From Candidatus Rifleibacteriota bacterium (GTDB taxonomy: Bacteria; Muiribacteriota; Ozemobacteria; Ozemobacterales; Ozemobacteraceae), in contig JADFXM010000003.1 in NCBI GenBank assembly GCA_015233565.1, forward strand, positions 155,063 to 219,062: a stretch of 64,000 nucleotides of DNA, given 5' to 3'. Shown in pieces: positions 632-36,326 of the stretch (the first letter of the stretch is position 1; each line of letters opens with the position of its first letter). Below the pieces are notes generated by a model. That model saw only the letters and a program-made list of their open reading frames with translations. It was not told the DNA's origin and searched no databases. Position numbers and translations under genes: made by a program.

Positions 632-1669
632 TTATTTGGTTCCAATTGCGATGATTGAAGGCGACACCGAAAGAAGTCGGAGTTTTCTGAAAATAAAATG
701 TTTGATTAGCCAACTAATCACTGATTGAAAAATGATTTTGTTTTCAGAATCCCTTATTTTAGAAGCCACTGGTATCAAATGCGTGAACTTTTTTCGAAAA
801 GGAATAATTATTTCAGGAAAACGATAATCCGGAAAAGCTGCGAATAACTCAACTCTACAAAAACCAACTGCTTTTAATAACCTCTTTATTTCATAGAAAG
901 AGTAAATCCAGTTTACATACGTTCTTCCAAGTTTCCATTTCGATATTAGATTTGCAAGCCATCGTGGAGCTATTGTTGAAAATGCCAGATTTGTATGTGG
1001 GTCTTTTGCACCAAAAAACATTTTCCAATCATACCTATTTTCAATAGCTAAGTAAATTTTTCCACCTGGATTCAATTGCCTTGAAACATAGCCGAGAAAA
1101 ATTTTTTGTTGCTCTCCTGGATTCTCAGAATAATTCACCTCTTGGAATTTTCCATAATATGAGCTTAATTCAATCATTCCTTTTTCTGGAATCCATTCAA
1201 GGACCCCGTTAACAATTGAAACATCAAATTTTTTCTCAAACTCAGGCAATCTTCTTAAATCAGCACAAACCAACTCAATATTATCTAGTTTTTCTTCGAC
1301 TGTCCTGACCTTCAATAATTCCAATGATTCCAGAGTTTGGTCAATTCCAATGACTGAGTTAGTCCTTTTTGCTAGGGGGATTGTCAATGCACCCCACATA
1401 CATCCGTAATCAATACAGTTTTCGTTTCCATTCAACCTTAACAATTCTAAACCTGCGCTGCGTTTTGGGGAAAAAATAACATCCTCAAGGTGTGGATAAA
1501 ATTGTTTTATCACTTTCGCAGAAGGCAAATTCTTCAAAAATTCGATCAATTTCTGATTTTCACATTTTGTCAGATTAGACCAATAACCTCTCGGATGATC
1601 TACTAAAAAGATCCCTGAAGAAGTAAAATTCCTGAAGTATTTATGCAATTCACTTTTCATTTTGTTCAA
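632..1669 (-). CDS. Class I SAM-dependent methyltransferase
   Basis: 345-aa ORF with a Rossmann SAM motif I (IDYGCMWGALT), an acidic post-I region (VCADLRRL) and motif III-like VSIVNGVLEWIP. It overlaps the upstream gene by 20 nt, which indicates an operon. Confidence 0.8.
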   Translation of the reverse strand: MNKMKSELHKYFRNFTSSGIFLVDHPRGYWSNLTKCENQKLIEFLKNLPSAKVIKQFYPHLEDVIFSPKRSAGLELLRLNGNENCIDYGCMWGALTIPLAKRTNSVIGIDQTLESLELLKVRTVEEKLDNIELVCADLRRLPEFEKKFDVSIVNGVLEWIPEKGMIELSSYYGKFQEVNYSENPGEQQKIFLGYVSRQLNPGGKIYLAIENRYDWKMFFGAKDPHTNLAFSTIAPRWLANLISKWKLGRTYVNWIYSFYEIKRLLKAVGFCRVELFAAFPDYRFPEIIIPFRKKFTHLIPVASKIRDSENKIIFQSVISWLIKHFIFRKLRLLSVSPSIIAIGTK

Positions 1670-2504
1670 AATGCGGCTTCATTAAAGAAGCTTTTTTCTC
1701 TGCCCATTTTAAGTGATATACGATTATAAAGCTAACAAGAAAAATGGAAACACCTCTAATCAGTAGAATAATAAAAATAATCCAAGTGAAAAAATAAGTA
1801 CTGAAGATTTCAAACAAAATGCAGAAACAGATGAAATCTTCTGATCTGGCACGCTCATCAAAAATGTTGGTAAATAAAATATATATTTTTTTTAAAAGCG
1901 GAAATCGGTTTTCCTTCAAATCTGAGGCGTTGTTTGTTTTAACATTGGAGTTGTTTGATTCTGGATTCTTTTTTGAAGCACATGCTGTCATATTTTCAAA
2001 CAAAATCCTTTTACTGAAAGACATTAGATTTGCAGCACAAAAAAATGGAATTAATGGAAGTACTATCAGAAAAAAAATGTCGTGTGATTTATTGAAAATG
2101 TAAAAGCCAAGGCCAATTTGTAAACCCAACTCATTAAGTAAAGCCCCATACTCATCCAAAATTTGCCCGGTAGCAGAAGTTTGATTTGTTAATCTGGCGA
2201 AATGGCCATCGCTCCAGTCAAGAATTCCTTTGAAGAAAAAGATAATTGTGGAAAGAATGACTGTAACTTTGCTTGGAATCGAGAGTAAAATTCCCCCAAT
2301 AATTCCGCACAGACAATAAGCCAAAGTGACCGTGTTAGGTTTTATTTTCGTTTTAAGTAATAAAAAAACCAGTATTGCTCCTGTCTCCATATAAAAAATC
2401 GATTTGATAAAAGTATACGGATTTTTTTTCCAATCAGAAAGATATGGGGCATAAGCACGATTATATTCGTATTGTTGTTTTCTAATTAGGTTATATGGTG
2501 TCAT
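1650..2504 (-). CDS. CDP-alcohol phosphatidyltransferase-family integral membrane transferase
   Basis: 284-aa multi-pass membrane ORF with DWSDGHFAR-x8-G-x3-D, the DG-x2-AR-x8-G-x3-D core of the CDP-alcohol phosphotransferase signature. The last Asp of the canonical motif is not obvious. Confidence 0.65.
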   Translation of the reverse strand: MTPYNLIRKQQYEYNRAYAPYLSDWKKNPYTFIKSIFYMETGAILVFLLLKTKIKPNTVTLAYCLCGIIGGILLSIPSKVTVILSTIIFFFKGILDWSDGHFARLTNQTSATGQILDEYGALLNELGLQIGLGFYIFNKSHDIFFLIVLPLIPFFCAANLMSFSKRILFENMTACASKKNPESNNSNVKTNNASDLKENRFPLLKKIYILFTNIFDERARSEDFICFCILFEIFSTYFFTWIIFIILLIRGVSIFLVSFIIVYHLKWAEKKASLMKPHFEQNEK

Positions 2505-2514
2505 GCTATTAATC

Positions 2515-3999
2515 TCAGGTCACCCTGCCTTTTATCAATTCCTCTTGGTTACTATATTTACGAAGAAAGAATTGGAATTTTTCCTCCCAGGCTTTTGGAT
2601 TTCTCTTCTTGGAAAACTCATTAAATTCATGGGTTTTTTTATCAACCAAGTCAACTAATTCTTTTCTGGATATAACAAAATCCGGAGAATCCTCGGGAAT
2701 AACTATCTCCGCTGATTTTACATCCATTTTAAGTCCATTTTCCGGGAGGTATCCTTTTTTTTGACATAATGTTTGGAGTTCAGAACCTGGCATAGGGTTT
2801 GCAATAAAGAATGAAACACTGTCAAATCCTGTATCAAATGGATATTGGAGTGTTTCCATTATTTCTTCTTTGGTTTCGCCTGGATAACCCAAAGAGAATA
2901 ATCCATGCATCTGGATCTTGTTTTCATGACATACTCTGATCAACTCTTTGATTTCTTCTTTTTCGGGAACTGACTTATGAATGATCTCTTGGAGTACACG
3001 TCTTGATGCACTCTCTATTCCTATTGCAAGCTGGTAAGCACCGGAATCAGCCATTAATTCAATCATTTCTTTATCAAGGGTTTTAGCCATTATTCCATGT
3101 GGTGTACACCAAACAAGATTATATCTTTTAAGGCATGAAAACAGCTCCATGGCTCTGTTGCGGTCAATTGTCATGTTATCGTCCATGAATTGGATCTCAT
3201 TTATTCCATATTTATTTACTAGTACATCAATTTCCTGAATAATATTCTTTACAGACCGGGCCCTGAATTTCCTTCCCCAAAAGTTTACAGTTGAACAGAA
3301 TACACAATTAAAAGGGCAACCTCGGGAGGTCATAACATGACTGACTCTATCTCTTCTTGCAAATGGAGCATAGGGTATTCCTATGACAATGTATTTTTCC
3401 ATATCAATTAGATCCCAGGCTGGGAAAGGAATAGAGTCAAGATCACTAATACGATTTTCCATTGGATTAACAATTATCTTTCCGCAATGTTTATAAGCAA
3501 TACCATCAAAATCAAATTCCACTTTTCCCTGGTTAAGCATGGAAAGCAGCCTTGGTAACCTGGTTTCCCCTTCTCCCATAATTACGAAATCTACGCTGTC
3601 GTTGAAAAGGGTCTTTTCGGGTTCTAAAGAGGGATGAACTCCACCCAATACGACTGGTACAGCTGGGTTAATTCTTTTTACCATCCTGCTGACGGCAAGG
3701 GCATTTTCTTGATGGGCAGAAAACATTGATTGGATACCTACAAGGTCAGGTGAAACAGCCTTTATTTTTTCAAATAATTCCTTCTCTGACAGACCGTATG
3801 TAATGTACCCGTTATTTTCTGCCGTGTTAAAGTAGCCTTCACAGGTTGAATCTATTATTGTGACTTTGAAACCATTTCCTTTCAAGGCAGCTCCGATATA
3901 TAGGAGGCCCAGGGGAATGGCAATTCTTCTAATACTGTCTGCTGCGATTGTATTCTGAGGATTGATAAGGAGTATAGAATTAATTTTTTTGCTAATCAT
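2515..3999 (-). CDS. B12-binding-domain radical SAM enzyme (class B rSAM, likely methyltransferase/tailoring enzyme)
   Basis: N-terminal cobalamin-binding-like Rossmann region (LLINPQ...PLGLLYIGAAL...VVLGGVHPS) followed by a radical-SAM core with SRGCPFNCVFC (CxxxCxxC). The track ORF begins at a GTG at 4017, and I prefer the first ATG at 3999. Confidence 0.8.
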   Translation of the reverse strand: MISKKINSILLINPQNTIAADSIRRIAIPLGLLYIGAALKGNGFKVTIIDSTCEGYFNTAENNGYITYGLSEKELFEKIKAVSPDLVGIQSMFSAHQENALAVSRMVKRINPAVPVVLGGVHPSLEPEKTLFNDSVDFVIMGEGETRLPRLLSMLNQGKVEFDFDGIAYKHCGKIIVNPMENRISDLDSIPFPAWDLIDMEKYIVIGIPYAPFARRDRVSHVMTSRGCPFNCVFCSTVNFWGRKFRARSVKNIIQEIDVLVNKYGINEIQFMDDNMTIDRNRAMELFSCLKRYNLVWCTPHGIMAKTLDKEMIELMADSGAYQLAIGIESASRRVLQEIIHKSVPEKEEIKELIRVCHENKIQMHGLFSLGYPGETKEEIMETLQYPFDTGFDSVSFFIANPMPGSELQTLCQKKGYLPENGLKMDVKSAEIVIPEDSPDFVISRKELVDLVDKKTHEFNEFSKKRNPKAWEEKFQFFLRKYSNQEELIKGRVT

Positions 4000-4027
4000 A
4001 ATTTTGTTTTGTACCACAGTTCATACG

Positions 4028-5962
4028 TCATAAGTTTAAACTGATTTTTGCCCTTTTCACTATTTCTTCGGCATTCAGCTTGTAATGCTTCACTAGGGTT
4101 TCAGGAGAGCCTGATTGACCAAATTCGTCATTCACCCCTACAATGAAAAATGATTTTGTTCTCAGATTTCCGGCTTTTAATATTTCTGCAGCAACAAGGT
4201 TGCCAAGGCCACCCGATTGATGTTCTTCCGCAACTATCACATGCTCTATCTCCTGAGCAGATCTGACAACAATTTTTTTGTCCAAGGGTTTTATCGTATG
4301 CATATTAACAATTCTAGTCTCAATGCCCCATTCAGATTTTAATACATATGCAGCCAACATGGCTTCTGCCACCATTATTCCGCAGGCAAAAATCGCCAAG
4401 GATTCATTTTCGGACTCATAATCCTCTGAAAGAAAAGTATCAAAAGAATCGGAAAACATTTTTTGCGCTTTCCGGAACCTAATAATATTTGCTTTTCCTA
4501 GTACAAACTTTGTTTCAGATTTTGTCACAATGGGTATTTTGGATTTTCCAAGTCTGATATATAAAGGTCCCTCCGCATTAATGGCTTCTTGGGTGGCTTT
4601 TCCCGTTTCGAAGGAATCGCAGGGTACAACTACTTTCATGTTTGGGAGACAGGTTGTAAGAAATATTTCCTCAAGGGCTTGGTGCGAGGCACCGTCTTTT
4701 CCAACGGTTAAACCACCAACACCTGCAATTTTGACATTAAAATTTGGTAGGCACACTGAGCTTCTTAACTGATCCCAATTTCGTCCGCACGCAAAAATCC
4801 CATAGGACCCAATGAATGGAATAAATCCCTCTTTGGCAAGACCTCCAGCAACATTTGTCATGTTTTGTTCTGCGATACCAAAGTTAATAACACCCTTTTT
4901 TTTGCTAAAATCAAAATTCTCAAATTCTGTACCGAAAATTGAATTACAAGAGTCTGCTGAGAGTTTTAATATTGCTAAATCATTGGTTTTTGCCAGGATT
5001 CGGCCGAACGCTTGCCTGGTGGTAGCCATTTCAACTCTCATGGTATCATGGCTATTCCATTTATATAATGAGGATCCATGATCAGTGTTCGGATAATAGC
5101 CCGCAGGAAAGGGTCTGCGGATATATTTTTCAAGATCACTCTTTTTCTGTTGTAATTCGCTTAATGCTGCTGAAAGTTGATCATAATCAGGGGCAGTGCT
5201 ATGCCACTTGTGATTATTTTCCATGAACGAAACATTTTTTCCCTTAATTGTCTGAGCAATAATAACACTTGGTTTTCCCTTAAAAGCTATGGCTTTTTCA
5301 TAGGCACATAATATCTTTTCCATATTATGTCCGTCGATTTCTATCACGTTCCATCCAAAAGATTTGTATTTGGAGGATAACTCCTCAAGCTTCATAACAT
5401 CTTCAGTACTGCCATCGATCTGTAGATGATTTCGATCGATAATTCCTATCAGATTATCAAGTCCGAAGTTAGAGGCGCTCATTGCTGCTTCCCAGATGCT
5501 TCCTTCCTGCTGTTCTCCATCACCCATAAGGCAGAAAACATTATAGTCTTGCCCTTTGATTTTTCCTGCCAAGGCAGAACCCACTGCAACTCCAAGCCCC
5601 TGACCCAGTGAACCTCCGGAAAATTCTACACCGTTGAGCCGTCTCATATCTGGGTGGCCCTGAAACCTGCTATGGAGTTCTCTGAAGCTCATCATATCTT
5701 CTACACTGCAATATCCTGTAGAAGCCAATGCCGCATACAGAGCAGGGCAGGCATGGGCCTTGGAAAGGAAGAACCTGTCCCTGTCGGGCCAACCAGGGTT
5801 TGATGGATCATGCTTTAACTTGTCAAAATACAATGCTGCAATCAGATCCATTGCAGAAAGAGAACCTCCGGGATGCCCAGAATTGGCATTATAAATCGCA
5901 ATGAGAGCATAAGCTCTCATTCTGTCGGCAATTTCAACTATTTGATCTGCAGGCAACCGCAT
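4028..5962 (-). CDS. tkt: Transketolase (single-chain, N-terminal ThDP + Pyr + C-terminal domains)
   Basis: SGHPGGSLS, the ThDP motif GDGEQQEGSIWEA...NLIGIIDRN, and the Pyr-domain motif FGIAEQNM. The length is typical for a full-length transketolase. Start chosen at the ATG at 5962, 1 nt after the transaldolase stop; the track start at 5989 is an alternative. Confidence 0.9.
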   Translation of the reverse strand: MRLPADQIVEIADRMRAYALIAIYNANSGHPGGSLSAMDLIAALYFDKLKHDPSNPGWPDRDRFFLSKAHACPALYAALASTGYCSVEDMMSFRELHSRFQGHPDMRRLNGVEFSGGSLGQGLGVAVGSALAGKIKGQDYNVFCLMGDGEQQEGSIWEAAMSASNFGLDNLIGIIDRNHLQIDGSTEDVMKLEELSSKYKSFGWNVIEIDGHNMEKILCAYEKAIAFKGKPSVIIAQTIKGKNVSFMENNHKWHSTAPDYDQLSAALSELQQKKSDLEKYIRRPFPAGYYPNTDHGSSLYKWNSHDTMRVEMATTRQAFGRILAKTNDLAILKLSADSCNSIFGTEFENFDFSKKKGVINFGIAEQNMTNVAGGLAKEGFIPFIGSYGIFACGRNWDQLRSSVCLPNFNVKIAGVGGLTVGKDGASHQALEEIFLTTCLPNMKVVVPCDSFETGKATQEAINAEGPLYIRLGKSKIPIVTKSETKFVLGKANIIRFRKAQKMFSDSFDTFLSEDYESENESLAIFACGIMVAEAMLAAYVLKSEWGIETRIVNMHTIKPLDKKIVVRSAQEIEHVIVAEEHQSGGLGNLVAAEILKAGNLRTKSFFIVGVNDEFGQSGSPETLVKHYKLNAEEIVKRAKISLNL

Positions 5963-5963
5963 T

Positions 5964-7322
5964 TTATCTGCACCACTGAAGCAGCTCATCGTAACTTTTT
6001 CTAAAACCGTTCAGTGTAATCAAAGTGGGTTTGAACGAATCAAATTCTTCTCTTTTTAACTTTTCTGGCTCATAAGCTTTAACAAATGTGTCGCTCTTCA
6101 TTAAGCGATCAAGAATGTGTTGATCTATTGGGTCAGAAAGGCACGGTGAATAGTCCCTGAGCTTCCCGTCAAATTCTGTAAGTTCAACAGGGTCAATCGT
6201 CATGTGTATCGGAATACTGCTGGCATCTGTAATCAAACGATCAACATGCCATGGTTTGTTGATAGAAGCTCCTAACAATAAACTGTTTCGGAAGCCCCTG
6301 TCTCGATAGAGAATTTTGTAGGCTCTTTTGGTAACTGCTGTGGATGACCAGGAACTTGCTTTTTCTCTGTGGTCGCAGACTCCTTCTCCAACCTCTTCCG
6401 CAACCGGAGCTTCAAGTCTGCTATTCATCTGAGTCAAATAACAGTGGTCTGCTTTTCCTTTTTCCAGAATTTCTCCAAATGCAAGTTGCTGGGAAACACT
6501 GTAATTGACGGTAATATTTACCCCTATCCCCTTCGATGTAAGCTCTGAAGCTACTTTCAAGCCTGCAAATGTTCCTGGGACTTTAAAAACAACATTAGGC
6601 TTTTCCCCGTTAAAAGCCTCCTTCAACCAAATGAAAATCATCTCCGCTTCGTTTATCATCGCTGTCGAATTATCTGAGATGTTTGGATTTAGCTGCAAAC
6701 TTACATAGCCAAAATTTTTGTTTCCAAAATTGAAGATGGGTCTGATTATGCGAGCTGATTCAAGTACTACTTCGGTGTAAATCCTTGCCGCCATTTGATC
6801 CAAGGTGTAGGAGGGGAATTTTTTCTTGATTTCGTCACGTTTTTTACCCCAGTATTCTGGGAATCTTTTTATGGTTTTATTGAAAATAGAGGGATTTGTG
6901 GTTACTGCGACTGCACCTTTTCTAAGGGCGTGTTTCAGCCCTGTTCCATCATTATGACTTAATCTGTTATTGATTAATTTCTGATCAGAATCTTGAGATA
7001 GCTTGCAGATCCTGGCATTCTTAATTATTGAGGCCTCATGGTCTATCATTTCTGTTAAGTTGGAATACCCAGCGTCTTTAAGAATCGAAAAGTTGGTTTT
7101 ACAAATATCTGAGATACTTTCATTTGAAAGGCAGGAGTTGCGTTCAGGGTTCTGGAGATTCCATTTGGGCAAACAAGAGTTAAGATCCATTGTTACTTCA
7201 GCCAACTGTTCCGCAAGTTCCCTTTCTTTTGTGCGCAAAAACTGTCGTCTTAATTCCATGAGTTGGTTTTCAAATTCTGAAGGCGGAGTCTCCAGTACCA
7301 ACATGTTTTTTTCCTTCTGCAT
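5964..7322 (-). CDS. tal: Transaldolase-family enzyme (long form with N-terminal extension)
   Basis: VTTNPSIF and VVFKVPGTFAGLKVASELTSKGIGVNITVNYSVSQ match the transaldolase signatures TTNPS and xKIPxT (Schiff-base Lys) ...GI..N.T..FS..Q. Confidence 0.8.
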   Translation of the reverse strand: MQKEKNMLVLETPPSEFENQLMELRRQFLRTKERELAEQLAEVTMDLNSCLPKWNLQNPERNSCLSNESISDICKTNFSILKDAGYSNLTEMIDHEASIIKNARICKLSQDSDQKLINNRLSHNDGTGLKHALRKGAVAVTTNPSIFNKTIKRFPEYWGKKRDEIKKKFPSYTLDQMAARIYTEVVLESARIIRPIFNFGNKNFGYVSLQLNPNISDNSTAMINEAEMIFIWLKEAFNGEKPNVVFKVPGTFAGLKVASELTSKGIGVNITVNYSVSQQLAFGEILEKGKADHCYLTQMNSRLEAPVAEEVGEGVCDHREKASSWSSTAVTKRAYKILYRDRGFRNSLLLGASINKPWHVDRLITDASSIPIHMTIDPVELTEFDGKLRDYSPCLSDPIDQHILDRLMKSDTFVKAYEPEKLKREEFDSFKPTLITLNGFRKSYDELLQWCR

Positions 7323-7379
7323 TTTTTTCCCCTTTTAAAATGTTGTTTTCTAGACTCCCTGTAAAGCTGTCTAAAAGTC

Positions 7380-8492
7380 CTACTTAAGTGAAAGGTTCAT
7401 CTGGAACATCACATCTTTCAATTCCTTCAGAAAATTTTCAATATCTCGGAAATCAATTGCCCCAAGGTTAGCCAACCTCAAGGTTTTCATTTTCCCAATC
7501 TTTCCTGGGTAAATTGTAAACTCTCTTTCAAAGAGAAGATCATGGAGTTTTTTAAAATCATAGTTCGGATGATCCGGTTCAATAAATGTTGTCAATATAT
7601 GGCTTTCCCATTCATCTTTGAGAAGCCTTTTAAAACCAAGCATTTCAACACCTTTTACCAACGTTTCCCAGCTTCGGGAGTATCTTCTATATCTAGCCTC
7701 CACGCCACCCTCTGCAAAAAATTCATCTATTGCTTTTCTGAGAGAATATATTACCTGAATTGGGGGCGTGAATCTCATTTCATGAGTCTTTAAGAACGTA
7801 TTATACTCATTGAAAAGGTTTAAATAAAAGGATCTTGGTGGATTGGTCGCTGTTTTTTCCAATTCCTCTTTTTTGCAAATGACAAACGCACAACCGGGCA
7901 TCCCCTGAATACATTTGTTACTTGAAGCCATCATAAAGTCAATGTTATATTCCTTGATATTAAATGGGATGCCGGCAAAACTTGAGATGGTGTCAAGAAT
8001 AAACACACAGTGGTACTTTTTTGCTATTGTTCCTATCTCTTTTGCTGGATTCAGTAACCCGGTGGTTGTTTCATGATGTACCGCAGCGACAAACTTAATA
8101 GATCTGTCATTTTTTAATGCGCTTTCAATCTGGTCAAGTACAGGTGGTTTGTCCCAATCACAGGTAATTTCAACATACGGAATGGAATATGCCTGAGCAA
8201 TTTTACACATTCTTTCGCCATATGCTCCGTTATTAACTACGAGGAGTTTGTGATCTTTATCCACCACTGAGTTAATTACCGCGTCTTGAGCAGATGTGCC
8301 AGAGCCCCCAATTAATACTGTAGTATAATTTTCATCTCCTCCAGCTATTTTCGTAAGGTCACTGATAATTGAGTCGACGATATTTACAAATTCTTTTTCC
8401 CTATGACAAATGTCTGGTACCACCTGTGCCATCTTTACACTGTCAGTAGTTGTAGCAGGCCCGGGGTTAAGAAGTATATTTCTTTTAATCAT
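7380..8492 (-). CDS. Class V aminotransferase, 2-aminoethylphosphonate:pyruvate transaminase (PhnW)-like / serine-pyruvate aminotransferase-like
   Basis: N-terminus ILLNPGPATTTDSV and the PLP-Lys motif SSNKCIQGMPG resemble PhnW-type enzymes. A GAGGG Shine-Dalgarno lies 5 nt upstream of the ATG at 8492, so I prefer that start over the track start at 8504. Confidence 0.7.
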   Translation of the reverse strand: MIKRNILLNPGPATTTDSVKMAQVVPDICHREKEFVNIVDSIISDLTKIAGGDENYTTVLIGGSGTSAQDAVINSVVDKDHKLLVVNNGAYGERMCKIAQAYSIPYVEITCDWDKPPVLDQIESALKNDRSIKFVAAVHHETTTGLLNPAKEIGTIAKKYHCVFILDTISSFAGIPFNIKEYNIDFMMASSNKCIQGMPGCAFVICKKEELEKTATNPPRSFYLNLFNEYNTFLKTHEMRFTPPIQVIYSLRKAIDEFFAEGGVEARYRRYSRSWETLVKGVEMLGFKRLLKDEWESHILTTFIEPDHPNYDFKKLHDLLFEREFTIYPGKIGKMKTLRLANLGAIDFRDIENFLKELKDVMFQMNLSLK

Positions 8493-8520
8493 AAATGCCC
8501 TCATTTGTTAGAAAATGATA

Positions 8521-9768
8521 TTACAGTGCGAAAAGTCTTTCTTTTAGTCTTGAAAACCCCTCTTCCAGTTCCTGCTTATCTGCTGAAAAAGTGAGTCGGA
8601 TATAATCATCACTGTTCGGACCGTAGGCAATTCCTGGTACACAACCTACCCCGGCATGATATAACATGTATTTGTACACTAGGATGGAATTATATCTCAT
8701 TGACAACTCAATTTCTTCTTCAGAAATATTTCTTTTTTTAGATTCCAACCTTACTTTTTCCATAAGCTTCTTTTTGTGTGCTTCTACAAACCTTCTGATA
8801 TTCGGGAATGCATAACTAGTTCCTTCAGGCATGGGACATGTAAAACCTTCAAGCTCATTAAGCCTGGGTATCAACCAGTTTCTCTTTTCCTCATATATCT
8901 GAAATTCCCTACCAAACTCTAAATTTTCATAATTATCCAGAACAAACCTGGCAAGTCTTTGAGCTCTTGTACAGGTGAATGGACTCTGTGCTATGAATGT
9001 TGAAGTAATATCAGGACTTTCAGGAAGAACTGCCCAACCGATTCTTTCACCTTGTAATCCCAGTCTGGCAAGACTTCCCAACATAATTGAAAATTTTCTT
9101 TTCCTATCAAAAAGATGCACTGGAAGATGTTTCTTTTTGTCATATATTTCAGGAAAATGATTTTCGTCATACATAATGAAAAAATCTTTTTCCTCTGCAA
9201 GGTCCACAAGCCCTGTGAGTGTTTCTTTATCATAAATAAAACCTGTTGGGTTATGAGGTGAAGTAAGAATCAGCATCTGCATATTATTTTTGATCAAAGG
9301 CCTGAGGTTATTTGCGGATACTTTATTGAAACCAAGCGGAAGTCTTGTAATATCTCTTCCGTCCAGTGAATGTGCTGCTGAAAGAGTGTAAAACGGATAA
9401 GAGGGATCAGGTATTACAATTTGATCTCCAAATTTTGTAAAGGTCTGCAAGGTTAGACTAATTGCACCTGTGCCTCCAACAGTTACAGCAATAGAGGCAG
9501 GATTAACCTCCAGATCAAACATCCGCCCATACCAAGAAGCGATTGATTTTCTCAGATCCTTGGCACCTGCGGATTTTTCATACCGGAAGATAGTTTTATC
9601 CTCCCTGGAAATAATCCTCTTTGCTTCATCATATATCTTTTGGCATGGTAGAAATCCGGCTTGTCCTCGGCTGAGATTAACTGCACCTGGTTCTGCAGCG
9701 GCTCCTTCAGAAATTTGTTTGGTCAGATAAAATGGAATCTCTTTGGCTATTGGGTTTATTTTGGCCAT
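8521..9768 (-). CDS. Class I/II aminotransferase-fold protein; canonical PLP-binding lysine apparently replaced (SLAR instead of SxSK)
   Basis: LTSPHNPTG and YDENHF (DExY-like) motifs are followed by IMLGSLARLGLQGERIGW, where fold-type I aminotransferases have SxSK-x(6-7)-GxRxG. The codon at 9064-9066 is AGA (Arg). Confidence 0.7.
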   Translation of the reverse strand: MAKINPIAKEIPFYLTKQISEGAAAEPGAVNLSRGQAGFLPCQKIYDEAKRIISREDKTIFRYEKSAGAKDLRKSIASWYGRMFDLEVNPASIAVTVGGTGAISLTLQTFTKFGDQIVIPDPSYPFYTLSAAHSLDGRDITRLPLGFNKVSANNLRPLIKNNMQMLILTSPHNPTGFIYDKETLTGLVDLAEEKDFFIMYDENHFPEIYDKKKHLPVHLFDRKRKFSIMLGSLARLGLQGERIGWAVLPESPDITSTFIAQSPFTCTRAQRLARFVLDNYENLEFGREFQIYEEKRNWLIPRLNELEGFTCPMPEGTSYAFPNIRRFVEAHKKKLMEKVRLESKKRNISEEEIELSMRYNSILVYKYMLYHAGVGCVPGIAYGPNSDDYIRLTFSADKQELEEGFSRLKERLFAL

Positions 9769-9804
9769 ATTTTCCTTTTTCTCCCTTTGTTATATCATTT
9801 TCGG

Positions 9805-11214
9805 TCAGGCATCTTTTTCATGACCCACTGACCTCTGGAGCTGATTTTCAGGATCATAGAACCTCTGGAATCTATTTATTTGTTCGGAAATATCCGGAAT
9901 AACGAATTCTTGTGAATTCATTTTATGTTTGATTTCCTCAAACAGATCCCAGATCAAGAATTCCAGGATCTTTTTGGAAAAATCACACAGTCTCTTATCA
10001 ATTTTTTCTATGTTTCCTGCGTTTGCAGCAAAAGCATCATAGGTACAACCCCCGCCACAGACTCCTATTGCACTGCATTTATTACATTCTTCCATAGTAA
10101 ACGGAGACCTTCTCGCCCATTTAATGAATTCAGTCTCTTTTGAAATATCCCTGTTAACTTCATCAGCAGCTTTGGATATTTTATCTGATACTAAAAGACT
10201 CTTACAGACTCCTATTTTTCCTCTGGAATCAATACAGAAGCCCCGCCCTTGAGCCTGACATTCATTATATCTTGGCACTTGTTGGGTAAAAGGTTCTATA
10301 AATCGGGAAATATTTTCTACAAATATTCCTCTTTCCCTGAAGGAAAGATATACCTTGATGAGGAAATCGGCATATTGTTCCATTGTGATGGCTGTGTGAT
10401 TATCTTTTTCAAGCAAGTGGTGACCAAAATTCAGACCGAGGCTCGAGATTCCAAGATTTACGAAATAATCTATCACCTCATCAATTTTTTCTATGTTGTG
10501 GACTCCTGTAACGGCGGAAATACCTGTCTTGCAGCCAGCGTCCCTTAAAAGTTTGTACCCTTCCAGGGAGGATTCAAATGTTCCAGTGCCATTTTTAAAA
10601 ACCCGGAACTTATTATGTACTTCAGCGGGGCCGTCCAGCGATACAAGCATAAGGGCCTTTGTTCTTGCAAAAAAGTCGGCCAGCTCTTTTGTAACCAATG
10701 AACCATTTGTAAAAATAATAACTCTTGATCCTTTGATTTTCATTACACGTTCCAGAATATACTTTACGGCGGGGATATTCATCAGGGGCTCTCCGCCAGT
10801 AATAGAAACTGTTTTTTTGTCATCAGGTTTGATATTTGCTTCAAAAAGATCCAGGGCCTTTTCAGCAGTATCAAGAGTCATGGAATGGCTCATCTGACTT
10901 TCATTCATGTTTTCTTCAATTTGACAATAGTCACATCTATAATTGCACCTGTTGTCAACAAGCATTACTATGTTTTTAATGCCTATGTGACCTGTACCGG
11001 ACTTGAGAATCTGATATCTCTGATTATCTTGTTCAGGTGTGGTGCAGAATCCATGCCGGCGCAGGGGGCTTTCCGAATTCTGTGCGGATTGTATCATTGA
11101 ATCAAGGTAATTTTTTTCTGAATAAATTTTTTGAAGGGTAAGTCCATTAAAGAGTGCAGAATAATTTCCTTTATCAAATCTTCTGACAAATTCTGATAAT
11201 CTATAATTGTCCAT
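9805..11214 (-). CDS. Radical SAM enzyme with C-terminal SPASM domain
   Basis: Radical-SAM cluster motif NRCNYRCDYC (CxxxCxxC). C-terminal Cys clusters are CQAQGRGFCIDSRGKIGVC and CNKCSAIGVCGGGC (SPASM). Confidence 0.85.
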   Translation of the reverse strand: MDNYRLSEFVRRFDKGNYSALFNGLTLQKIYSEKNYLDSMIQSAQNSESPLRRHGFCTTPEQDNQRYQILKSGTGHIGIKNIVMLVDNRCNYRCDYCQIEENMNESQMSHSMTLDTAEKALDLFEANIKPDDKKTVSITGGEPLMNIPAVKYILERVMKIKGSRVIIFTNGSLVTKELADFFARTKALMLVSLDGPAEVHNKFRVFKNGTGTFESSLEGYKLLRDAGCKTGISAVTGVHNIEKIDEVIDYFVNLGISSLGLNFGHHLLEKDNHTAITMEQYADFLIKVYLSFRERGIFVENISRFIEPFTQQVPRYNECQAQGRGFCIDSRGKIGVCKSLLVSDKISKAADEVNRDISKETEFIKWARRSPFTMEECNKCSAIGVCGGGCTYDAFAANAGNIEKIDKRLCDFSKKILEFLIWDLFEEIKHKMNSQEFVIPDISEQINRFQRFYDPENQLQRSVGHEKDA

Positions 11215-12333
11215 TTATTTCCGCCCTTGAAAAATCAGTGTACATAGATAAGAAGAATGGATAAGATCTTTTTGGTCCTGGGACTTGATTACTTCAATCT
11301 TGGGAATATCAAGTTTGCGGTAAATGGGACAATACTCATCCGGTTCATCCAATAATCCGTTAAGGTAGCGCCGGCCGGCGCAACCACCACCGCAGACATC
11401 AACCTTGTCGCATTGTTTTCTACAGAATTCAGGAATCGTCCGGATTCTTTTGAAGCTTTCATTTTCGTAGGCAGGGGCAAAGGATTCCTTGAGATCTTCA
11501 ATATGGACAGTGCTTTTTGTCCAGTATTCGGCAGGAATTGCCCTGCCATCACCAAGGGTTATCGTTTCGTTGCTGTTTATCCAATACACGCAGGGCATGA
11601 CTTCCCCATCAGGGTGAATTCTAAGGCTTTCAAGTCCACATGGAGATTGAGATACTGCGGGTATTATGTTTAACATCGCATTGATGATCGGTTCTGAACA
11701 GCTTATAAGGTTTCCATGTGTGAAAAGTAGCCCAACTGCCTCCCAAAACTGATCGTAACTAAGCTTGAATTCAAATATTCCAGCCTTCGGTACTGTTTTG
11801 AAGATGTTTACTCTCAAGTTGCAGTTTTCTTTTGCCGCCCTCTGCAACAGGCCTGGAATTTGTTTAAAATTGATATTCATCAAGGCAGTTGTAATGCTGA
11901 ATTCAATTCGGAGTTTCTGACATTTTTTTATGGCTTCATCAACAAAATTCCAGGATGCACCTTTTCTAAAAGTATTTTGTTCAATCTCATCTGGAAAATC
12001 CAGTGAAATGTCAACATCATTAAATCTCTTTAGAATAGCTTCATCCATTTGTCCTATGGTGTAGCCATTGGATGTAACTGACATCCTGATCCCCTTTTTG
12101 CAGCAGAGATCGACCATGTCTAAAAATTCAGGGTTAAGAATGTTCTCACCGGTTCCGAAATTTATTGAATGGATTTTTTTGTTTTTTCCTTCAATGATAT
12201 CTTCAAATTCAGAATATGTAAGGGTGTTCCCTCTGAGGGGTCGTGAATAGCAGTGCCCACAGTTGAGGTTGCAGTTTGCGGTAGAGCCAATACCAAGGGA
12301 AATGCCGTTATCTCTATTAGGTTCACAGTTCAT
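11215..12333 (-). CDS. Radical SAM enzyme with C-terminal SPASM domain
   Basis: NCNLNCGHC (CxxxCxxC); C-terminal CGLESLRIHPDGEVMPC and CRKQCDKVDVCGGGC. The gene abuts the downstream gene with no gap. Confidence 0.85.
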   Translation of the reverse strand: MNCEPNRDNGISLGIGSTANCNLNCGHCYSRPLRGNTLTYSEFEDIIEGKNKKIHSINFGTGENILNPEFLDMVDLCCKKGIRMSVTSNGYTIGQMDEAILKRFNDVDISLDFPDEIEQNTFRKGASWNFVDEAIKKCQKLRIEFSITTALMNINFKQIPGLLQRAAKENCNLRVNIFKTVPKAGIFEFKLSYDQFWEAVGLLFTHGNLISCSEPIINAMLNIIPAVSQSPCGLESLRIHPDGEVMPCVYWINSNETITLGDGRAIPAEYWTKSTVHIEDLKESFAPAYENESFKRIRTIPEFCRKQCDKVDVCGGGCAGRRYLNGLLDEPDEYCPIYRKLDIPKIEVIKSQDQKDLIHSSYLCTLIFQGRK

Positions 12334-13363
12334 TTGATTGATTTTCTCCAGTAGGGTTTCTGTAAGTATTTACTTCCCTGGGTATTTTATTCAGGTCGCA
12401 ATGAGAGCATAGGTCAAGATCGTCAGCCTCATAATTTATATGCATGCGCCTCAAAGAAGTCATTTTTTCGCCATGCCAAATATTCTTAATACTGTCTTTT
12501 TTTACATTTCCCAGAGGGAATCTACAGGCATTATCACCAGTGCAAGGGTATACGGTGCCATCCCAGGCAATTGTAAGCCTTTGCCAGAGTTGTGGACATG
12601 GAAAGATACTTTCAGGCTTATTTTGAGCTCTTCTCTTATCTCTGGGATTACCATCGGGGCTTTGGTAAATTGATATCCTGACCATATCAGCTCTGGTTCG
12701 CCAGTAATGAATAAATGCCATAAGTTCTTCATGGGTCTGCTTTTGATCTATGATTTGGACAATAATTTCAGGATTTCTGATACCCTGTTTTTCCTTTTCA
12801 TTTGTCAGAAATTCAATGTTTTTGAGTACCAGTTCCAAGTCCGAGCCGACCTTTATTTTTTGATAGGTCAGAGGGGATGCTGCATCAATAGAGAAAATAA
12901 TTCGATCCAGGTCACTTTCGATAATTTTGTGGGACATCTCCTTATTGATCAAAACTCCATTGGTGCTGATCCTTATATCCAAGATCCCCTTTTGTTTTGC
13001 ATAGGTGATCATTTCAATCAGTCTCGGGTTGAGAAATGATTCCCCAAGCCAGTCAGGATCTATGGAACATAAACCATTTTCCATTCCCTGATCAATTATC
13101 ATTTTGAAAAGGTCAAACTCCATATCTCCGATGTTCGTTCTCCTGGAGTGCCTTATGCAGTGCTGACACATGAGATTACATCGACCGGAAACTTCTATGT
13201 CCAGATGAAGCGGAAAATCAGATACAATGAATTGCCTTGGGTTCTGTTCCCATTTTCTTCTGTATTCAATTACCGCTGGATCGGCTTGTGGAAAAGGAAT
13301 ACTTGATTTCCCTATTATATCCAGGTGGTAGGCGTATATCTGAAGTTTTGAATGAGTATGCAT
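12323..13363 (-). CDS. Radical SAM enzyme with SPASM/twitch-like C-terminal Cys motifs
   Basis: GRCNLMCQHC (CxxxCxxC); C-terminal CPQLWQRLTIAWDGTVYPC and CSHC. It overlaps the next gene by 11 nt and is a paralogue of the gene at 23792-24796. Confidence 0.8.
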   Translation of the reverse strand: MHTHSKLQIYAYHLDIIGKSSIPFPQADPAVIEYRRKWEQNPRQFIVSDFPLHLDIEVSGRCNLMCQHCIRHSRRTNIGDMEFDLFKMIIDQGMENGLCSIDPDWLGESFLNPRLIEMITYAKQKGILDIRISTNGVLINKEMSHKIIESDLDRIIFSIDAASPLTYQKIKVGSDLELVLKNIEFLTNEKEKQGIRNPEIIVQIIDQKQTHEELMAFIHYWRTRADMVRISIYQSPDGNPRDKRRAQNKPESIFPCPQLWQRLTIAWDGTVYPCTGDNACRFPLGNVKKDSIKNIWHGEKMTSLRRMHINYEADDLDLCSHCDLNKIPREVNTYRNPTGENQSNEL

Positions 13364-13373
13364 GAAGGCAGTC

Positions 13374-14102
13374 CTACGTTAATTTTTCCGATGTTTTCCA
13401 GTAAGTGGTGATTACCTGTGTTGCTCGTTCGATATCGCTTTTTGAATCGATTTCAGACCACATTCCGGATTCTATTGCCAATCCGTGCCAAGGTATTGAT
13501 AATCCAGTTCTAATCGTTCCTGTTTCATACTGTTCTTTAAGATTTCCGGACTGTTTATATTGATTAATCAGTAATTCAGTAAACTGACCTGAAAGTTTGG
13601 TGATACCTGCGTATTCGTATTTAACAGGAATTCCTGGATGTTGTTTTCCTAGATAAGTGATTATGTTGTTTTCGTCTAATACAGTGAAAACCTCATCGCC
13701 GTTGCCGCTGCAAGGTAAAACAATACCTGTATTTTTTTCGGAATAATTAAACAGCTCACGAACAATATGCGGATTAAATACCAAGTCCCCATCAAAAACC
13801 ATGCAATCTGAGGGGGTTTCGAGGGCTAGTGCAAGAGAATGCATGCTGCCTGATTTATCATAGATTCCGTTTACAACATAAGTTATATTCAAGTTGTTGA
13901 AAAAATTTCCAAAAGTATTGAAAATTAAGTCATGCCTATAACCCGTAACTATTGTAACCTCTCTGATACCCGAAAGAGAAATAGCTTCCAGCATATAATG
14001 CAGTAAACTTTTACCGTTTATTGAAAATAATGGTTTTGGAAGGTCATTTGAAACGTCTTTCAGCCTGCTTCCAATTCCTGCTGCAAGGATAATTGCTTTC
14101 AC
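13374..14102 (-). CDS. LicC-like nucleotidyltransferase (sugar-/alcohol-phosphate cytidylyl/nucleotidyltransferase)
   Basis: GTG start. The N-terminus (V/M)KAIILAAGIGSRL...LPKPL is the NTP-transferase G-x-G-x-R-L loop. At 242 aa it has the size of LicC/PntC-type enzymes. Confidence 0.75.
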   Translation of the reverse strand: MKAIILAAGIGSRLKDVSNDLPKPLFSINGKSLLHYMLEAISLSGIREVTIVTGYRHDLIFNTFGNFFNNLNITYVVNGIYDKSGSMHSLALALETPSDCMVFDGDLVFNPHIVRELFNYSEKNTGIVLPCSGNGDEVFTVLDENNIITYLGKQHPGIPVKYEYAGITKLSGQFTELLINQYKQSGNLKEQYETGTIRTGLSIPWHGLAIESGMWSEIDSKSDIERATQVITTYWKTSEKLT

Positions 14103-14108
14103 ATGGGC

Positions 14109-14774
14109 TCAACTGTTTTTAATTATGTAACAAGGCCGGGTTACAAATGGAAATTTTCTTATCTGAACATCTTTGCCTTTGAAAAAATCGTCTATTCCTT
14201 TTGTGTCACCGTGAAATGCGGCATAATTATCAAGCAGGATAATACCGCCTTTGGAAACATGATCGTAAAAGTTTTCAAGAACGCATGTTGTTGATTCTAC
14301 AAAATCGATATCAATATTCAGAAGAGAAATCTTTAAAAACGGCCTTGCTTTGATATACTCAGGTATTGTCTGAAGGACATCCCCTTTAATCAGCTCAAAG
14401 TTTTTTATTCCTTTGTCATGGAAGATTGCTTCTAATTGTTTGATGTCAATGGAGCTTGAACCGGCTGTTTTTATCCAGTGTTCTCGCTGGGCCTTGTCTT
14501 CTTCAAATTTCGTGTCAGGATATTCATCACTGAAAACGTCAAACCCGATTATTTTTGTTGCCGCATGATTGGCTAGAAGTTCTCTGAACATGGCAAATCT
14601 GACAATCGATGTCCCCTTGAACACTCCGCATTCTACGATTTCCCCGGGGATATCCATGACCATTTTAAAGGCTTCATAGTGTGCAGCGAATTTTCCAAGT
14701 CGGCTTAAGTCCAAAGTCAAATGGAAAAAAGTCTCATATTCATACATTTTACTATTGTCTGGAAGTTTTATCAT
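14109..14774 (-). CDS. TylF/MycF-family SAM-dependent O-methyltransferase
   Basis: GEIVECGVFKGTS (SAM motif I) and NIDIDFVESTTCVLENFYDHVSKGGIILLDNY match the TylF pattern DGDLYEST...GG.i..DDY. Confidence 0.75.
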   Translation of the reverse strand: MIKLPDNSKMYEYETFFHLTLDLSRLGKFAAHYEAFKMVMDIPGEIVECGVFKGTSIVRFAMFRELLANHAATKIIGFDVFSDEYPDTKFEEDKAQREHWIKTAGSSSIDIKQLEAIFHDKGIKNFELIKGDVLQTIPEYIKARPFLKISLLNIDIDFVESTTCVLENFYDHVSKGGIILLDNYAAFHGDTKGIDDFFKGKDVQIRKFPFVTRPCYIIKNS

Positions 14775-15239
14775 CTCAGCTCCCCGGATAAATTGACTGC
14801 CTAGCCTTTTAAAATTGCCTCAGATTTCGCTCAATAATATTTGGTTTCTCATTCAAAAACTGATAAAATTTCAAGAAAGCTTTTCCAAGATGGAATTCGC
14901 AATAATCATCAACCAGTTTTATGCATCAGCCAAGCTTTTTCTAAATATAAATCATTTTCATTGATTGATGCAATGCTAAATCTTACGTTTAGTTTTTGAA
15001 AGTGGTTGGAACATTCATCTTGCGATGTTTTTCATATTTTTCACAACCATTTCCTTCCGTTAATATGCCATTTATATGGTATAGGATTATTTTAGCTTTT
15101 CGAAATAATGAAAGTTTAACAACTAAGATCCAAAAGCCATCCCGCAAAGCCATATTTAAACCGAAATTTCCAAAGTCTTTCCCTTTTGGTTTGACGGTTG
15201 AAATCTATTTTACCTAGCCTTGATGGGAATATTTGAAAA

Positions 15240-16934: not shown

Positions 16935-16972
16935 TCGCGCATTCCACTATCCGATAAACCGAACTAAAAAAA

Positions 16973-18001: not shown

Positions 18002-18003
18002 TC

Positions 18004-22306: not shown

Positions 22307-22357
22307 AATCCTAATTATAACTCATCTTTTGCATTATTTTTTTTGCAAAACTGTATT

Positions 22358-23686: not shown

Positions 23687-23791
23687 TTCAGCGTCCTTCT
23701 TCTCATTTAGTATGAATTAGTAATCACCTAAAGGAAAAAAAATTGTTAACGTAGACGGCTCTTCGATGAAAAACAGCTGCTAAATTTCAAA

Positions 23792-32792: not shown

Positions 32793-32803
32793 GATAAAAA
32801 AAA

Positions 32804-36312: not shown

Positions 36313-36326
36313 TTGAAAAAAAATTG

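Follow-up and report, generated by a model that had tools for sequence, protein, structure and literature searches.

The stretch of DNA analysed here, referred to as the window, comprises 64,000 nucleotides from a Candidatus Rifleibacteriota bacterium (assembly GCA_015233565.1, contig JADFXM010000003.1, positions 155,063 to 219,062). Near one end it carries a compact block of 12 co-directional minus-strand genes (positions 632–14774) that includes a transketolase (TK), a transaldolase-family protein (TAL-like), two aminotransferases and four radical S-adenosylmethionine (SAM) enzymes (rSAMs). The original prediction dealt with the segment 2515–13363 and counted nine consecutive minus-strand genes there. 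Open reading frame (ORF) analysis identified eight, all lying exactly where that prediction had placed them, with the tight packing and overlaps that it had described. The block itself is larger, as a nucleotidyltransferase (NTase) and a TylF-type methyltransferase precede this segment and a CDP-alcohol phosphotransferase (CDP-OH transferase) and a methyltransferase follow it. Intergenic distances inside the 12-gene block range from −26 to +57 nt and a gap of 465 nt (14775–15239) is found upstream. The 632–14774 region is one operon within a surface-glycan island. Searches for riboswitches, tRNAs, promoters and terminators identified nothing beyond chance. Profile searches with Pfam and NCBIfam upheld all domain assignments of the 2515–13363 segment, among them the radical SAM, SPASM, transketolase and transaldolase calls, and the motifs SGHPGG, GDGEQQEG, TTNPS, FKVPGT and CxxxCxxC of the radical-SAM proteins are all present as had been predicted. 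The genes of the block are, from the first to the last:

14109–14774, minus strand: TylF-type (macrocin-O-methyltransferase-like) SAM methyltransferase, first gene of the block (Pfam PF05711, 63 bits; 6-nt gap downstream)
13374–14102, minus strand: PntC/LicC-type nucleotidyltransferase, putative cytidylyltransferase (Pfam NTP_transf_3 and NTP_transferase)
12323–13363, minus strand: rSAM1, radical-SAM protein with SPASM/twitch domain (Pfam Radical_SAM and SPASM)
11215–12333, minus strand: rSAM2, radical-SAM/SPASM protein (motifs CNLNCGHC and CRKQCDKVDVCGGGC)
9805–11214, minus strand: rSAM3, radical-SAM/SPASM protein of the type of anSME and of maturases of RiPPs, peptides made on the ribosome that carry post-translational modifications (motifs CNYRCDYC and CNKCSAIGVCGGGC)
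8521–9768, minus strand: class-I/II pyridoxal-phosphate (PLP) aminotransferase, AT12 (Pfam PF00155, 123 bits)
7380–8504, minus strand: class-V aminotransferase of the 2-aminoethylphosphonate (AEP) transaminase type, AT5 (TIGR03301 and NF010006)
5964–7322, minus strand: transaldolase-family (class-I aldolase) protein, TAL-like (Pfam PF00923, 95 bits)
4028–5989, minus strand: transketolase, TK, full length (NF004559 and three Pfam transketolase domains)
2515–4017, minus strand: B12-binding radical-SAM protein (B12-rSAM), presumed methyltransferase (Pfam B12-binding and Radical_SAM)
1650–2504, minus strand: CDP-alcohol phosphotransferase-family membrane protein, presumed head-group transferase (Pfam PF01066, 48 bits)
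632–1669, minus strand: class-I SAM methyltransferase, final gene of the block (Pfam Methyltransf_31, _25 and _11; 20-nt overlap with the CDP-OH transferase gene)

Both aminotransferases noted in the original prediction are present, and what it missed is that one of them is, by every sequence test, an AEP transaminase (AEPT). AT5 scores 447 bits on TIGR03301 (cut-off 360.8) and 379 bits on NF010006 (cut-off 296). Among its solved relatives the AEPT domain of the PntC-AEPT fusion of T. denticola (6pd1, Tde1415; 349 bits) comes first, ahead of four PhnW structures (272–292 bits). The PLP-binding lysine (SNK197C) and aspartate (D171) and the C-terminal arginine R343 are retained. The gene context of its relatives was established by scanning metagenome contigs (given L numbers here) with AT5. 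All relatives of known context with 58–69% identity to AT5 are linked to a TAL-like gene. This “TAL clade” (window, L003, L007, L094 and L095) reaches 435–455 bits on TIGR03301, compared to 370–373 bits for the sampled AEPTs linked to phosphoenolpyruvate (PEP) mutase (PepM). On the catabolic PhnW model (cut-off 401) the values are 371 bits for the TAL-linked transaminases and 253–312 bits for the PepM-linked ones. Comparison at the 68 columns conserved at ≥85% among 18 PepM-linked or crystallised AEPTs revealed that all TAL-clade transaminases are identical at 57 of them, the other differences being conservative; no clade-specific or specificity-determining substitution was found at these columns. 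There is no sign in the sequences that TAL-linked transaminases have changed substrate. No source or sink of phosphonoacetaldehyde (PepM with phosphonopyruvate decarboxylase (Ppd), PhnX, or PhnY/PhnA) is linked to AT5 within the window.

A further PepM-less arrangement was observed in L112 (834–3614), L118 (494–3994) and L124 (9213–12731), where the order is BacA – AEPT-like – CDP-alcohol phosphatidyltransferase – LPG_synthase_TM. The AEPT-like proteins of these loci score 327–353 bits, below the TIGR03301 cut-off, and the module looks like a lipid head-group pathway.

Three other gene products of the block fit the same enzymatic setting. The top solved relative of the NTase is the PntC domain of the T. 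denticola protein (6pd1; 79 bits over residues 2–241), compared to 46 bits over residues 1–110 for LicC (1jyk). The protein is 28–34% identical to AEPT-adjacent NTases, in PepM-type and TAL-type loci alike, and it is probably PntC-like. Tde-PntC contacts the amine through Glu104 and Glu196 (PMC6697681); the latter is kept in the window protein (QYE) and the former is replaced by Asp, as in LicC (D105). The B12-rSAM has its best NCBIfam match in the Sden_1168 P-methyltransferase family (NF038361) with 360 bits, below the cut-off of 575 and well above the next family (174 bits). Several PepM clusters hold a B12-rSAM that is 33–38% identical to it. Those of the PepM-AEPT-PntC clusters L110 and L116 (36–38% identity) score 341–353 bits on the Sden_1168 model, and the window enzyme is best placed with them in a putative Sden_1168-related subfamily outside NF038361 proper. 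The CDP-OH transferase has about six hydrophobic segments and the motif DWSDGHFAR-x8-G-x3-D-x3-A. This sequence keeps 7 of the 8 residues of the family motif (D-x2-D-G-x2-A-R-x8-G-x3-D-x3-D), the fourth and last Asp being replaced by Ala. CDP-OH transferases are also present in L007, L092, L103, L112 and L124. AT5, the NTase, the B12-rSAM, the CDP-OH transferase and the two SAM methyltransferases (Module A) appear to correspond to the set of enzymes with which canonical PEP-mutase clusters place AEP on surfaces.

PepM is to our knowledge the sole enzyme that initiates phosphonate synthesis. Its specific and validated motif EDKX5NS (PMC6697681) is absent from all six frames of the 64-kb window, and a Pfam scan of the window ORFs of at least 120 amino acids (aa) detected neither PEP mutase (PF13714) nor Ppd. 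Neither of the two was found in the sister loci L001–L010, L092, L094 and L095 either. The scan is considered to work because the identical motif search recovered PepM in 15 control loci with more distant AEPTs. In these relatives of AT5 (35–50% identity) classical clusters with the order PepM – (Ppd) – PntC – AEPT – PntC are found, and L103 (PMT_2 – GT2 – B12-rSAM – CDP-OH-like – PepM::NTase – AEPT::NTase) features all parts of Module A plus PepM. Judged by these clusters, what the window holds is the tailoring half of a canonical phosphonate cluster, and in this AT5 clade the TAL-like/TK pair stands in the PepM–Ppd position. AT5 adjoins TAL-TK in the window, L007 and L095, and lies near TAL in L003. 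The order AT5 – TAL – TK – His-phosphatase – rSAM1 is found in L094, a short PepM-less contig, and in L095 (both 58% identical to AT5).

The TAL-like protein has 450 aa with an N-terminal extension of ~130 aa and carries the motifs TTNPS (aa 141) and FKVPGT (aa 246). Its match to PF00923 (95 bits against 27) assigns it at the Pfam family level only, as its best score on the TAL/FSA equivalog models is 79 bits for cut-offs of 214–712 (TIGR00875: 29 bits, cut-off 246). All 72 full-length members of its family keep the Schiff-base Lys132, Asn35, Thr156 and Arg181 (residue numbers of the TAL-like protein and of TK follow TalB, FSA and E. coli TktA; motif-level conclusions are robust and exact numbers approximate). 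Family-wide, TalB Glu96 is replaced by Gln as in FSA (Gln59), and Phe178, at the position of FSA Tyr131, by Met. At the position of Arg228, which binds the distal phosphate, only the cassette clade has Asn or Ser; members from sugar-catabolic loci (e.g., Christensenella) keep the Arg. The protein is set apart from transaldolase (EC 2.2.1.2) by Glu96, Phe178 and the equivalog scores, and from FSA by Tyr131 and TIGR00875. Members of the family are extremely rare. A search of 5.8 billion clustered proteins gave 80 homologues, and when 1.84 billion representatives were searched exhaustively with HMMER, just 55 clusters attained E ≤ 1e-30. An exact-sequence look-up of the window protein gave no match.

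The TK (motifs SGHPGG at aa 37 and GDGEQQEG at aa 156) exceeds the NF004559 cut-off (569 bits compared to 488) and retains the thiamine diphosphate (ThDP) motif GDG...N, the catalytic His26/66/100/261/473 and Asp469. Its sugar-phosphate set is incomplete: the Arg358 equivalent, Ser385 and Lys/Arg at 520 are kept, and each of the six cassette TKs has Val or Ile in place of the phosphate-binding His461. The start of the TK gene overlaps the stop of the TAL-like gene by 26 nt, an overlap found also in L001, L006, L007 and L095, and the two form a translationally coupled pair (Module B). The suspicion of the original prediction that these are dedicated rather than housekeeping copies is borne out by the sequences. 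A housekeeping TK/TAL pair was ruled out by the active-site residues (Glu96 to Gln, Phe178 to Met, loss of TK His461), the failed TAL equivalog scores, the rarity of the family and the conserved synteny. Christensenella tenuis (L004/L005; 10001–11395 and 19188–20935) encodes a TAL-like member (35% identical, Arg228 kept) together with a split transketolase without His461, in a sugar-catabolic locus with an ABC transporter, several dehydrogenases and a glycerate kinase. The occurrence in this locus makes the pairing of TAL-like and TK older than the cassette.

The CX3CX2C motif is present in the four rSAMs of the block (CNLMCQHC in rSAM1). Two complete CxxCxxxxxCGGGC SPASM clusters had been predicted; the one of rSAM3 (CNKCSAIGVCGGGC) stands, and the corresponding sequence of rSAM2 (CRKQCDKVDVCGGGC) has CX3C instead of CX2C spacing. 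rSAM1 lacks CGGGC, yet matches Pfam SPASM with 57.8 bits, and its auxiliary domain is closest to BtrN. Orthologues of rSAM1 (60–64% identity) occur in L001, L006, L009 and L092. rSAM2 is the best-conserved core member (51–70% identity), and the fold neighbours of its AF2 model (pLDDT 87) are BlsE, anSME, SuiB, viperin-like (CTP) enzymes and DesII. rSAM3 (orthologues with 45–59% identity) has cyclopropylglycine synthase (8vpo), CteB and anSME as top solved relatives. AT12, for which no NCBIfam equivalog was reached, always accompanies rSAM1–3 and has orthologues of 37–65% identity in L001, L006, L007, L009 and L092. The window, L001/L002, L006, L092 and L009 all have the rSAM1–3 + AT12 set (Module C), of which L010 has a part; it is a separately conserved core.

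None of rSAM1–3 reached an NCBIfam family cut-off, all maturase models remaining far below. No precursor peptide gene, such as would be expected beside peptide maturases, accompanies them: the block leaves no ORF space for it and no conserved small ORF is common to the window and the sister loci. The sole small ORF conserved across sister loci is RHH-like, lies beside a sulfatase-like gene and is absent from the window. A RiPP system was rejected, as there is no precursor and no maturase family cut-off was reached. In L010 (104–2050, P0120) a natural NTP-transferase::rSAM2 fusion is followed by class-II aldolase, rSAM3, another NTase and TK. In both the window and L001 the rSAM genes have an NTase gene at their head. 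This fusion, the NTase position and the constant class-I aminotransferase point to nucleotide-linked small molecules as the rSAM substrates, with which the presence of BlsE, viperin (CTP) and DesII among the rSAM2 fold neighbours agrees. A scan of a genome collection with the rSAM2 alignment gave, among the matches listed, only paralogues of 22–40% identity in unrelated contexts and no isolate orthologues. An rSAM2 homologue (43%) was observed in an Oscillospiraceae metagenome-assembled genome (MAG) (L011, 9236–19552) with a Tyr-phosphatase, a NUDIX hydrolase, four more radical-SAM proteins and a SAM synthetase.

The cassette genes recur in synteny at 37–70% identity in at least six independent low-GC metagenomic contigs, an arrangement that is not due to chance because it is found repeatedly in independent contigs. 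The closest TAL-like relatives of the sister loci have 48–59% identity. The literature searched contained no paper linking these gene families, and the view of the original prediction that this is a conserved, dedicated and uncharacterised cassette holds. The main sister loci have the following gene orders:

L001/L002: NTase (PF01467) – rSAM1 – rSAM2 – rSAM3 – PhnA-like – class-I aminotransferase – class-II aldolase – TAL – TK
L006: TAL – TK – His-phosphatase – EamA – rSAM1–3 – methyltransferase – class-I aminotransferase – class-II aldolase, beside NeuB genes
L007: PhnA-like – class-I aminotransferase – aldolase – TAL – TK – EamA – AT5 – NTase – rSAM – B12-rSAM – CDP-OH transferase
L003+L092 (one 36.5-kb contig of the NCBI MAG GCA_053532595.1): all of these parts, with the arrangement TAL-NTase-B12rSAM-AT5 in L003
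L009 (Omnitrophota): rSAM1 – rSAM2 – aldolase – rSAM3 – class-I aminotransferase – PNP_UDP_1, without TK and TAL
L010: NTase::rSAM2 fusion – aldolase – rSAM3 – NTase – TK

The PhnA-like genes of L001 (6797–8056) and L007 (3–1235) encode proteins 43% identical to S. meliloti PhnA. The gene lies in L001 between rSAM3 and the class-I aminotransferase of a biosynthetic-looking operon. The L007 protein aligns over its full length to the S. meliloti phosphonoacetate hydrolase and has an intact TNPNN nucleophile as well as the KDK lysines, which in that enzyme stabilise the aci-carboxylate leaving group. A recurrent triad was also seen flanking the cassette (L001 1–2431, L092 18398–20617, L094 1650–3206; not in the window). 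It comprises a PAPS-reductase-family gene, a 70–73 aa RHH-like ORF and a sulfatase-like protein of the alkaline-phosphatase superfamily. The window has neither a sulfatase nor a PhnA-like gene.

Upstream of the block the glycan island continues outside the conserved cassette (15240–26622, minus strand) with genes for a LIC12162-family transferase, a GFO oxidoreductase, a CMP-sugar synthetase, NeuB, a PseG-like fusion, a class-III aminotransferase, an rSAM1 paralogue and an ABC-2 exporter, a gene content that agrees with the surface-glycan island proposed originally. The rSAM1 paralogue (33% identity) and the class-III aminotransferase (NF004856, 539 bits) lie side by side (22358–24820, minus strand) and adjoin the PseG-like, NeuB and CMP-synthetase genes. 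They constitute a second radical-SAM and aminotransferase pair, in a nonulosonic-acid pathway, and this pair lends support to a role of the BtrN/BtrS type, with oxidation first and transamination after it. An rSAM/SPASM gene likewise adjoins a NeuB fusion in L006. On the plus strand of the window, a PMT_2 (GT-C) glycosyltransferase gene (45166–46539) precedes another B12-binding radical-SAM gene, the second of the window (the pair spanning 45166–47961). The product of this radical-SAM gene is 32% identical to the B12-rSAMs of L003/L092, where a PMT – B12-rSAM pair flanks the cassette too. Two tandem Wzy_C (O-antigen ligase-like) genes, followed by three genes for proteins with a prepilin N-methylation motif, are found at 30813–38307 (plus strand). 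An ABC-F protein encoded elsewhere in the window shares 73% identity with one of a Candidatus Riflebacteria MAG and 59–60% with Ozemobacteraceae proteins, which makes the source an uncultivated organism of the Riflebacteria kind.

The original prediction envisaged a carbohydrate or aminopolyol pathway. This chemistry is probably wrong in kind, since the AEP transaminase, the PntC-like NTase, the B12-rSAM of the type found in PepM clusters and the CDP-alcohol phosphotransferase make a nucleotide-activated amino-phosph(on)ate a more likely product than a keto-sugar. We lean, at slightly better than even confidence, towards a block whose enzymes build and tailor a small amino-phosph(on)ate head group, activate it with a nucleotide and transfer it; this level of confidence applies to the general statement and not to any single version of the phosphorus chemistry. 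The best reading is that the head group goes onto a nonulosonic-acid glycan or a lipid through an uncharacterised pathway. As TK and TAL both release and accept aldehydes, the TAL-like/TK pair is probably tied functionally to the aldehyde substrate of the transaminase. It might deliver a short phosph(on)o-aldehyde that the transaminase would convert to the amine, or it might extend phosphonoacetaldehyde, made by the transaminase from AEP that is imported or synthesised in trans, to a longer hydroxylated phosphonate. The NTase would then form a CMP or CDP conjugate. The radical-SAM enzymes would work on this nucleotide-linked intermediate, the B12 enzyme possibly acting as a C-methylase comparable to Fom3 on CMP-hydroxyethylphosphonate, and rSAM1–3 with the class-I aminotransferase would oxidise and then aminate following the BtrN/BtrS logic. 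The methyltransferases could also tailor the head group, which the CDP-alcohol phosphotransferase would pass to a lipid or glycan acceptor. The last part of the transfer, outside the membrane, may fall to a PMT_2 GT-C transferase of the kind that accompanies such modules in L092, L103 and the window (45166–46539).

Three versions of the phosphorus chemistry can be ranked. The leading one, to which we give clearly less than even confidence, is a true phosphonate whose C–P bond comes from outside the operon, either through imported AEP or through PepM acting in trans. In that case the transaminase would work in the direction of PhnW, and the phosphonoacetaldehyde would be lengthened by TAL/TK. 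An AEPT pocket without changes, the proximity to catabolic PhnW and the PhnA-like and EamA genes of sister loci all agree with this version. A phosphate-ester analogue comes next and a C–P bond formed independently of PepM last.

Several observations weigh against a head-group pathway of this kind, whose steps are put together from sequence comparison. We know of no source of the C–P bond without PepM, which was searched for in this 64-kb part of a 261-kb contig. The rSAM1–3 + AT12 core is present in L009 without TK, TAL and AT5, so that the rSAM core may make an unrelated moiety. The nearest solved relatives of rSAM3 and of the B12-rSAM are peptide- or protein-modifying enzymes. The NTase has the LicC-like Asp at Tde-PntC Glu104, the motif of the CDP-OH transferase is without its final Asp, and the PhnA-like C–P hydrolase of sister loci is a catabolic signature. 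Two roles outside phosphorus chemistry were rejected. A supply of sedoheptulose-7-phosphate or heptose for ADP/GDP-heptose is contradicted by the absence of GmhA, kinase and phosphatase, weak HddC and RfaE-domain matches reflecting the nucleotidyltransferase fold. A precursor supply for the nonulosonic-acid genes is contradicted by the occurrence of the cassette without NeuB in L001, L007 and L009.

In the phosphate-ester version, which is unlikely in our estimation, TK would supply xylulose-5-phosphate and the TAL-like protein would cleave it at C3–C4 in the manner of FSA to a dihydroxyacetone unit and glycolaldehyde-2-phosphate. This C–O–P analogue of phosphonoacetaldehyde would be converted to phosphoethanolamine and CDP-ethanolamine, then methylated, tailored and transferred, and the PhnA-like protein of sister loci would remove phosphoglycolate. 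Such a route explains the absence of PepM/Ppd and the placement of TAL-TK without new C–P chemistry. It agrees with the FSA-type Gln, with the loss of Arg228 only in the cassette clade (a shorter donor) and with the LicC-type Asp at the NTase Glu104 position, and the other AEPT-like group (L112, L118, L124) pairs with CDP-OH transferases in loci without PepM. However, that group is below the cut-off, unlike AT5, whose clade outscores PepM-linked AEPTs and has the conserved AEPT columns without clade-specific change, as expected of an aminotransferase that has not adapted to another substrate. The B12-rSAM and NTase are of PepM-cluster type, and we know of no transaldolase-family enzyme with xylulose-5-phosphate as donor. 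A PepM-independent phosphonate is more doubtful still. A radical-SAM enzyme would couple a 5′-deoxyadenosyl or other carbon radical to reduced phosphorus, forming the C–P bond; a nucleosidase, a class-II aldolase and TAL/TK would cut the phosphono-sugar to phosphonoacetaldehyde, comparably to the dihydroxyacetone phosphate (DHAP) shunt; and the transaminase and PntC would act on this to aminate and cytidylylate it, with methylation and attachment to the cell surface to follow. ArsS and ArsL carry out analogous radical couplings for arsenic, but no precedent with phosphorus is known, and no rSAM resembles ArsS, HpnH or MqnE among the NCBIfam matches listed. The idea accounts for AEPT, PntC-like and B12-rSAM proteins that look genuine in the absence of PepM from all seven cassette loci, and for TAL-TK taking the PepM–Ppd place beside the transaminase. 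Sister loci add a class-II aldolase (FucA/MtnB-like), L009 has a PNP_UDP_1 nucleosidase/phosphorylase-like gene beside the rSAMs, and altered phosphate sites in TAL and TK are expected for C–P instead of C–O–P substrates. The argument is wholly one of gene association, though; no genes of phosphite uptake or oxidation were seen, and L009 combines the rSAM core and the nucleosidase-like gene without the AEP-type transaminase and PntC.

Two further explanations leave phosphorus aside, and both are improbable. The rSAM trio could consist of maturases of a peptide or protein (a RiPP or a co-encoded enzyme), with the sugar and aminotransferase genes as mere neighbours. The best families and structures of rSAM3 are indeed RiPP maturases and anSME (FibroRumin 167 bits, PapB 141 bits, 8vpo, CteB), rSAM1 and rSAM2 weakly match metalloenzyme-maturase families, and the sulfatase-like and alkaline-phosphatase-family proteins of sister loci could need formylglycine. 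Against it, no family cut-off is reached, the gaps leave no room for a precursor gene, and the conserved small RHH-like ORF, the sulfatase and the PhnA-like gene are all absent from the window. The rSAMs are, moreover, syntenic with aminotransferase, nucleotidyltransferases and TK across phyla, one being fused to a nucleotidyltransferase. We give just as little weight to a recycling role, in which TK, TAL-like and the class-II aldolase and nucleosidase of sister loci would salvage the 5′-deoxyadenosine or 5-deoxyribose released by the five or six rSAMs of the island. Class-II aldolase and PNP_UDP_1 family proteins are DHAP shunt enzyme types for 5′-deoxyadenosine recycling, and transketolase reportedly converts 5-deoxyribose to 7-deoxysedoheptulose. 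Loss of the phosphate-binding His of TK suits unphosphorylated sugars, and TK/TAL/aldolase/nucleosidase genes always accompany several rSAMs. Recycling leaves unexplained, however, why an AEPT-type transaminase is paired with TAL-TK and why L003 has the TAL-NTase-B12rSAM-AT5 arrangement; the kinase and isomerase of the DHAP shunt are not present, and the TAL-like family is found also in rSAM-free sugar-catabolic loci.

Comparison with characterised systems places the amino-phosph(on)ate head-group pathway, our preferred reading, closest to the Pnt/AepXYZ pathway. Its PepM – Ppd – AEP transaminase – PntC set, from T. denticola (Tde1413–1415) and Bacteroides fragilis (Rice et al. 2019, PMC6697681), belongs to “phosphonyl tailoring” clusters, by which AEP is put on cell surfaces (PMC6697681). 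Shared features are the AEPT-type class-V aminotransferase, the PntC-type NTase, the surface-glycan setting and nucleotide activation. In contrast, the block lacks PepM/Ppd, has TAL-like/TK instead, adds three SPASM rSAMs and a class-I aminotransferase, and carries Asp at Glu104 of the NTase. The metagenomic PepM clusters L103, L110 and L116 share the B12-rSAM type and a CDP-OH transferase-like protein. In fosfomycin synthesis, as far as described in the work cited in PMC6697681 and PMC12931638, the Fom1 cytidylyltransferase precedes C-methylation of CMP-hydroxyethylphosphonate by the B12 radical-SAM enzyme Fom3. The pairing of the NTase (13374–14102) with the B12-rSAM (2515–4017), which may by analogy act on a CMP-activated phosphonate, is similar, but the B12-rSAM is nearest to Sden_1168 and not to Fom3, glycan decoration would replace an antibiotic, and PepM is absent.

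The block shares with the Lic/Kennedy systems a LicC-family NTase fold, a CDP-alcohol phosphotransferase-family protein and probably a small charged head group on surface polymers. Unlike them it lacks a choline kinase, a choline transporter and LicD, its head group would be made de novo with a transaminase, and the last Asp of the CDP-OH transferase motif is replaced. The association of SPASM/twitch rSAMs with an aminotransferase recalls BtrN/BtrS of 2-deoxystreptamine synthesis, the rSAM1 auxiliary domain matching BtrN, and rSAM3 and the fold of rSAM2 recall anSME. Similarity is low (43–48 bits), there are three consecutive rSAMs, no aminocyclitol synthase is found and the aminotransferase is of class I and not of the DegT type. 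The TAL-like protein has in common with FSA/TalB the PF00923 fold, the Schiff-base Lys, Asn35, Thr156, Arg181 and the FSA-like Gln at TalB Glu96. It differs by its length of 450 aa with the extension, Met at Phe178/Tyr131, the loss of Arg228 in the cassette clade, the overlap with TK and its extreme rarity. A ThDP-dependent transketolase homologue acts on a phosphonate in the synthesis of phosphonothrixin (Zhu et al. 2022, Bown et al. 2023, cited in PMC11387542), a case in which a transketolase-family enzyme appears to have been recruited to phosphonate metabolism. So far as that citing account describes it, that pathway differs by starting from PepM, by a split TK homologue with an acetolactate-synthase homologue, by the absence of TAL and rSAM, and by its product being a secreted herbicide and not a surface decoration.

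PEP mutase is the starting point of nearly all biological phosphonates known, and genome mining for phosphonates has no handle other than its gene (PMC6697681, PMC8942020). Phosphonate-cluster surveys have been anchored on PepM, and the present cassette would thus have escaped them. We regard it as a variant of phosphonyl or phospho-alcohol head-group tailoring, with a modest chance of being categorically new. Phosphonate head groups may be built or elaborated in a way invisible to PepM-based mining, or enzymes of the AEP family may be re-used for a phosphate-ester head group made from pentose-phosphate intermediates. A further possible outcome is PepM-free C–P bond formation, a long-standing open question. 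The cassette, whose hosts include the candidate phyla Riflebacteria and Omnitrophota, gives new functional contexts for the transketolase and transaldolase families and for three uncharacterised families of SPASM radical-SAM enzymes.

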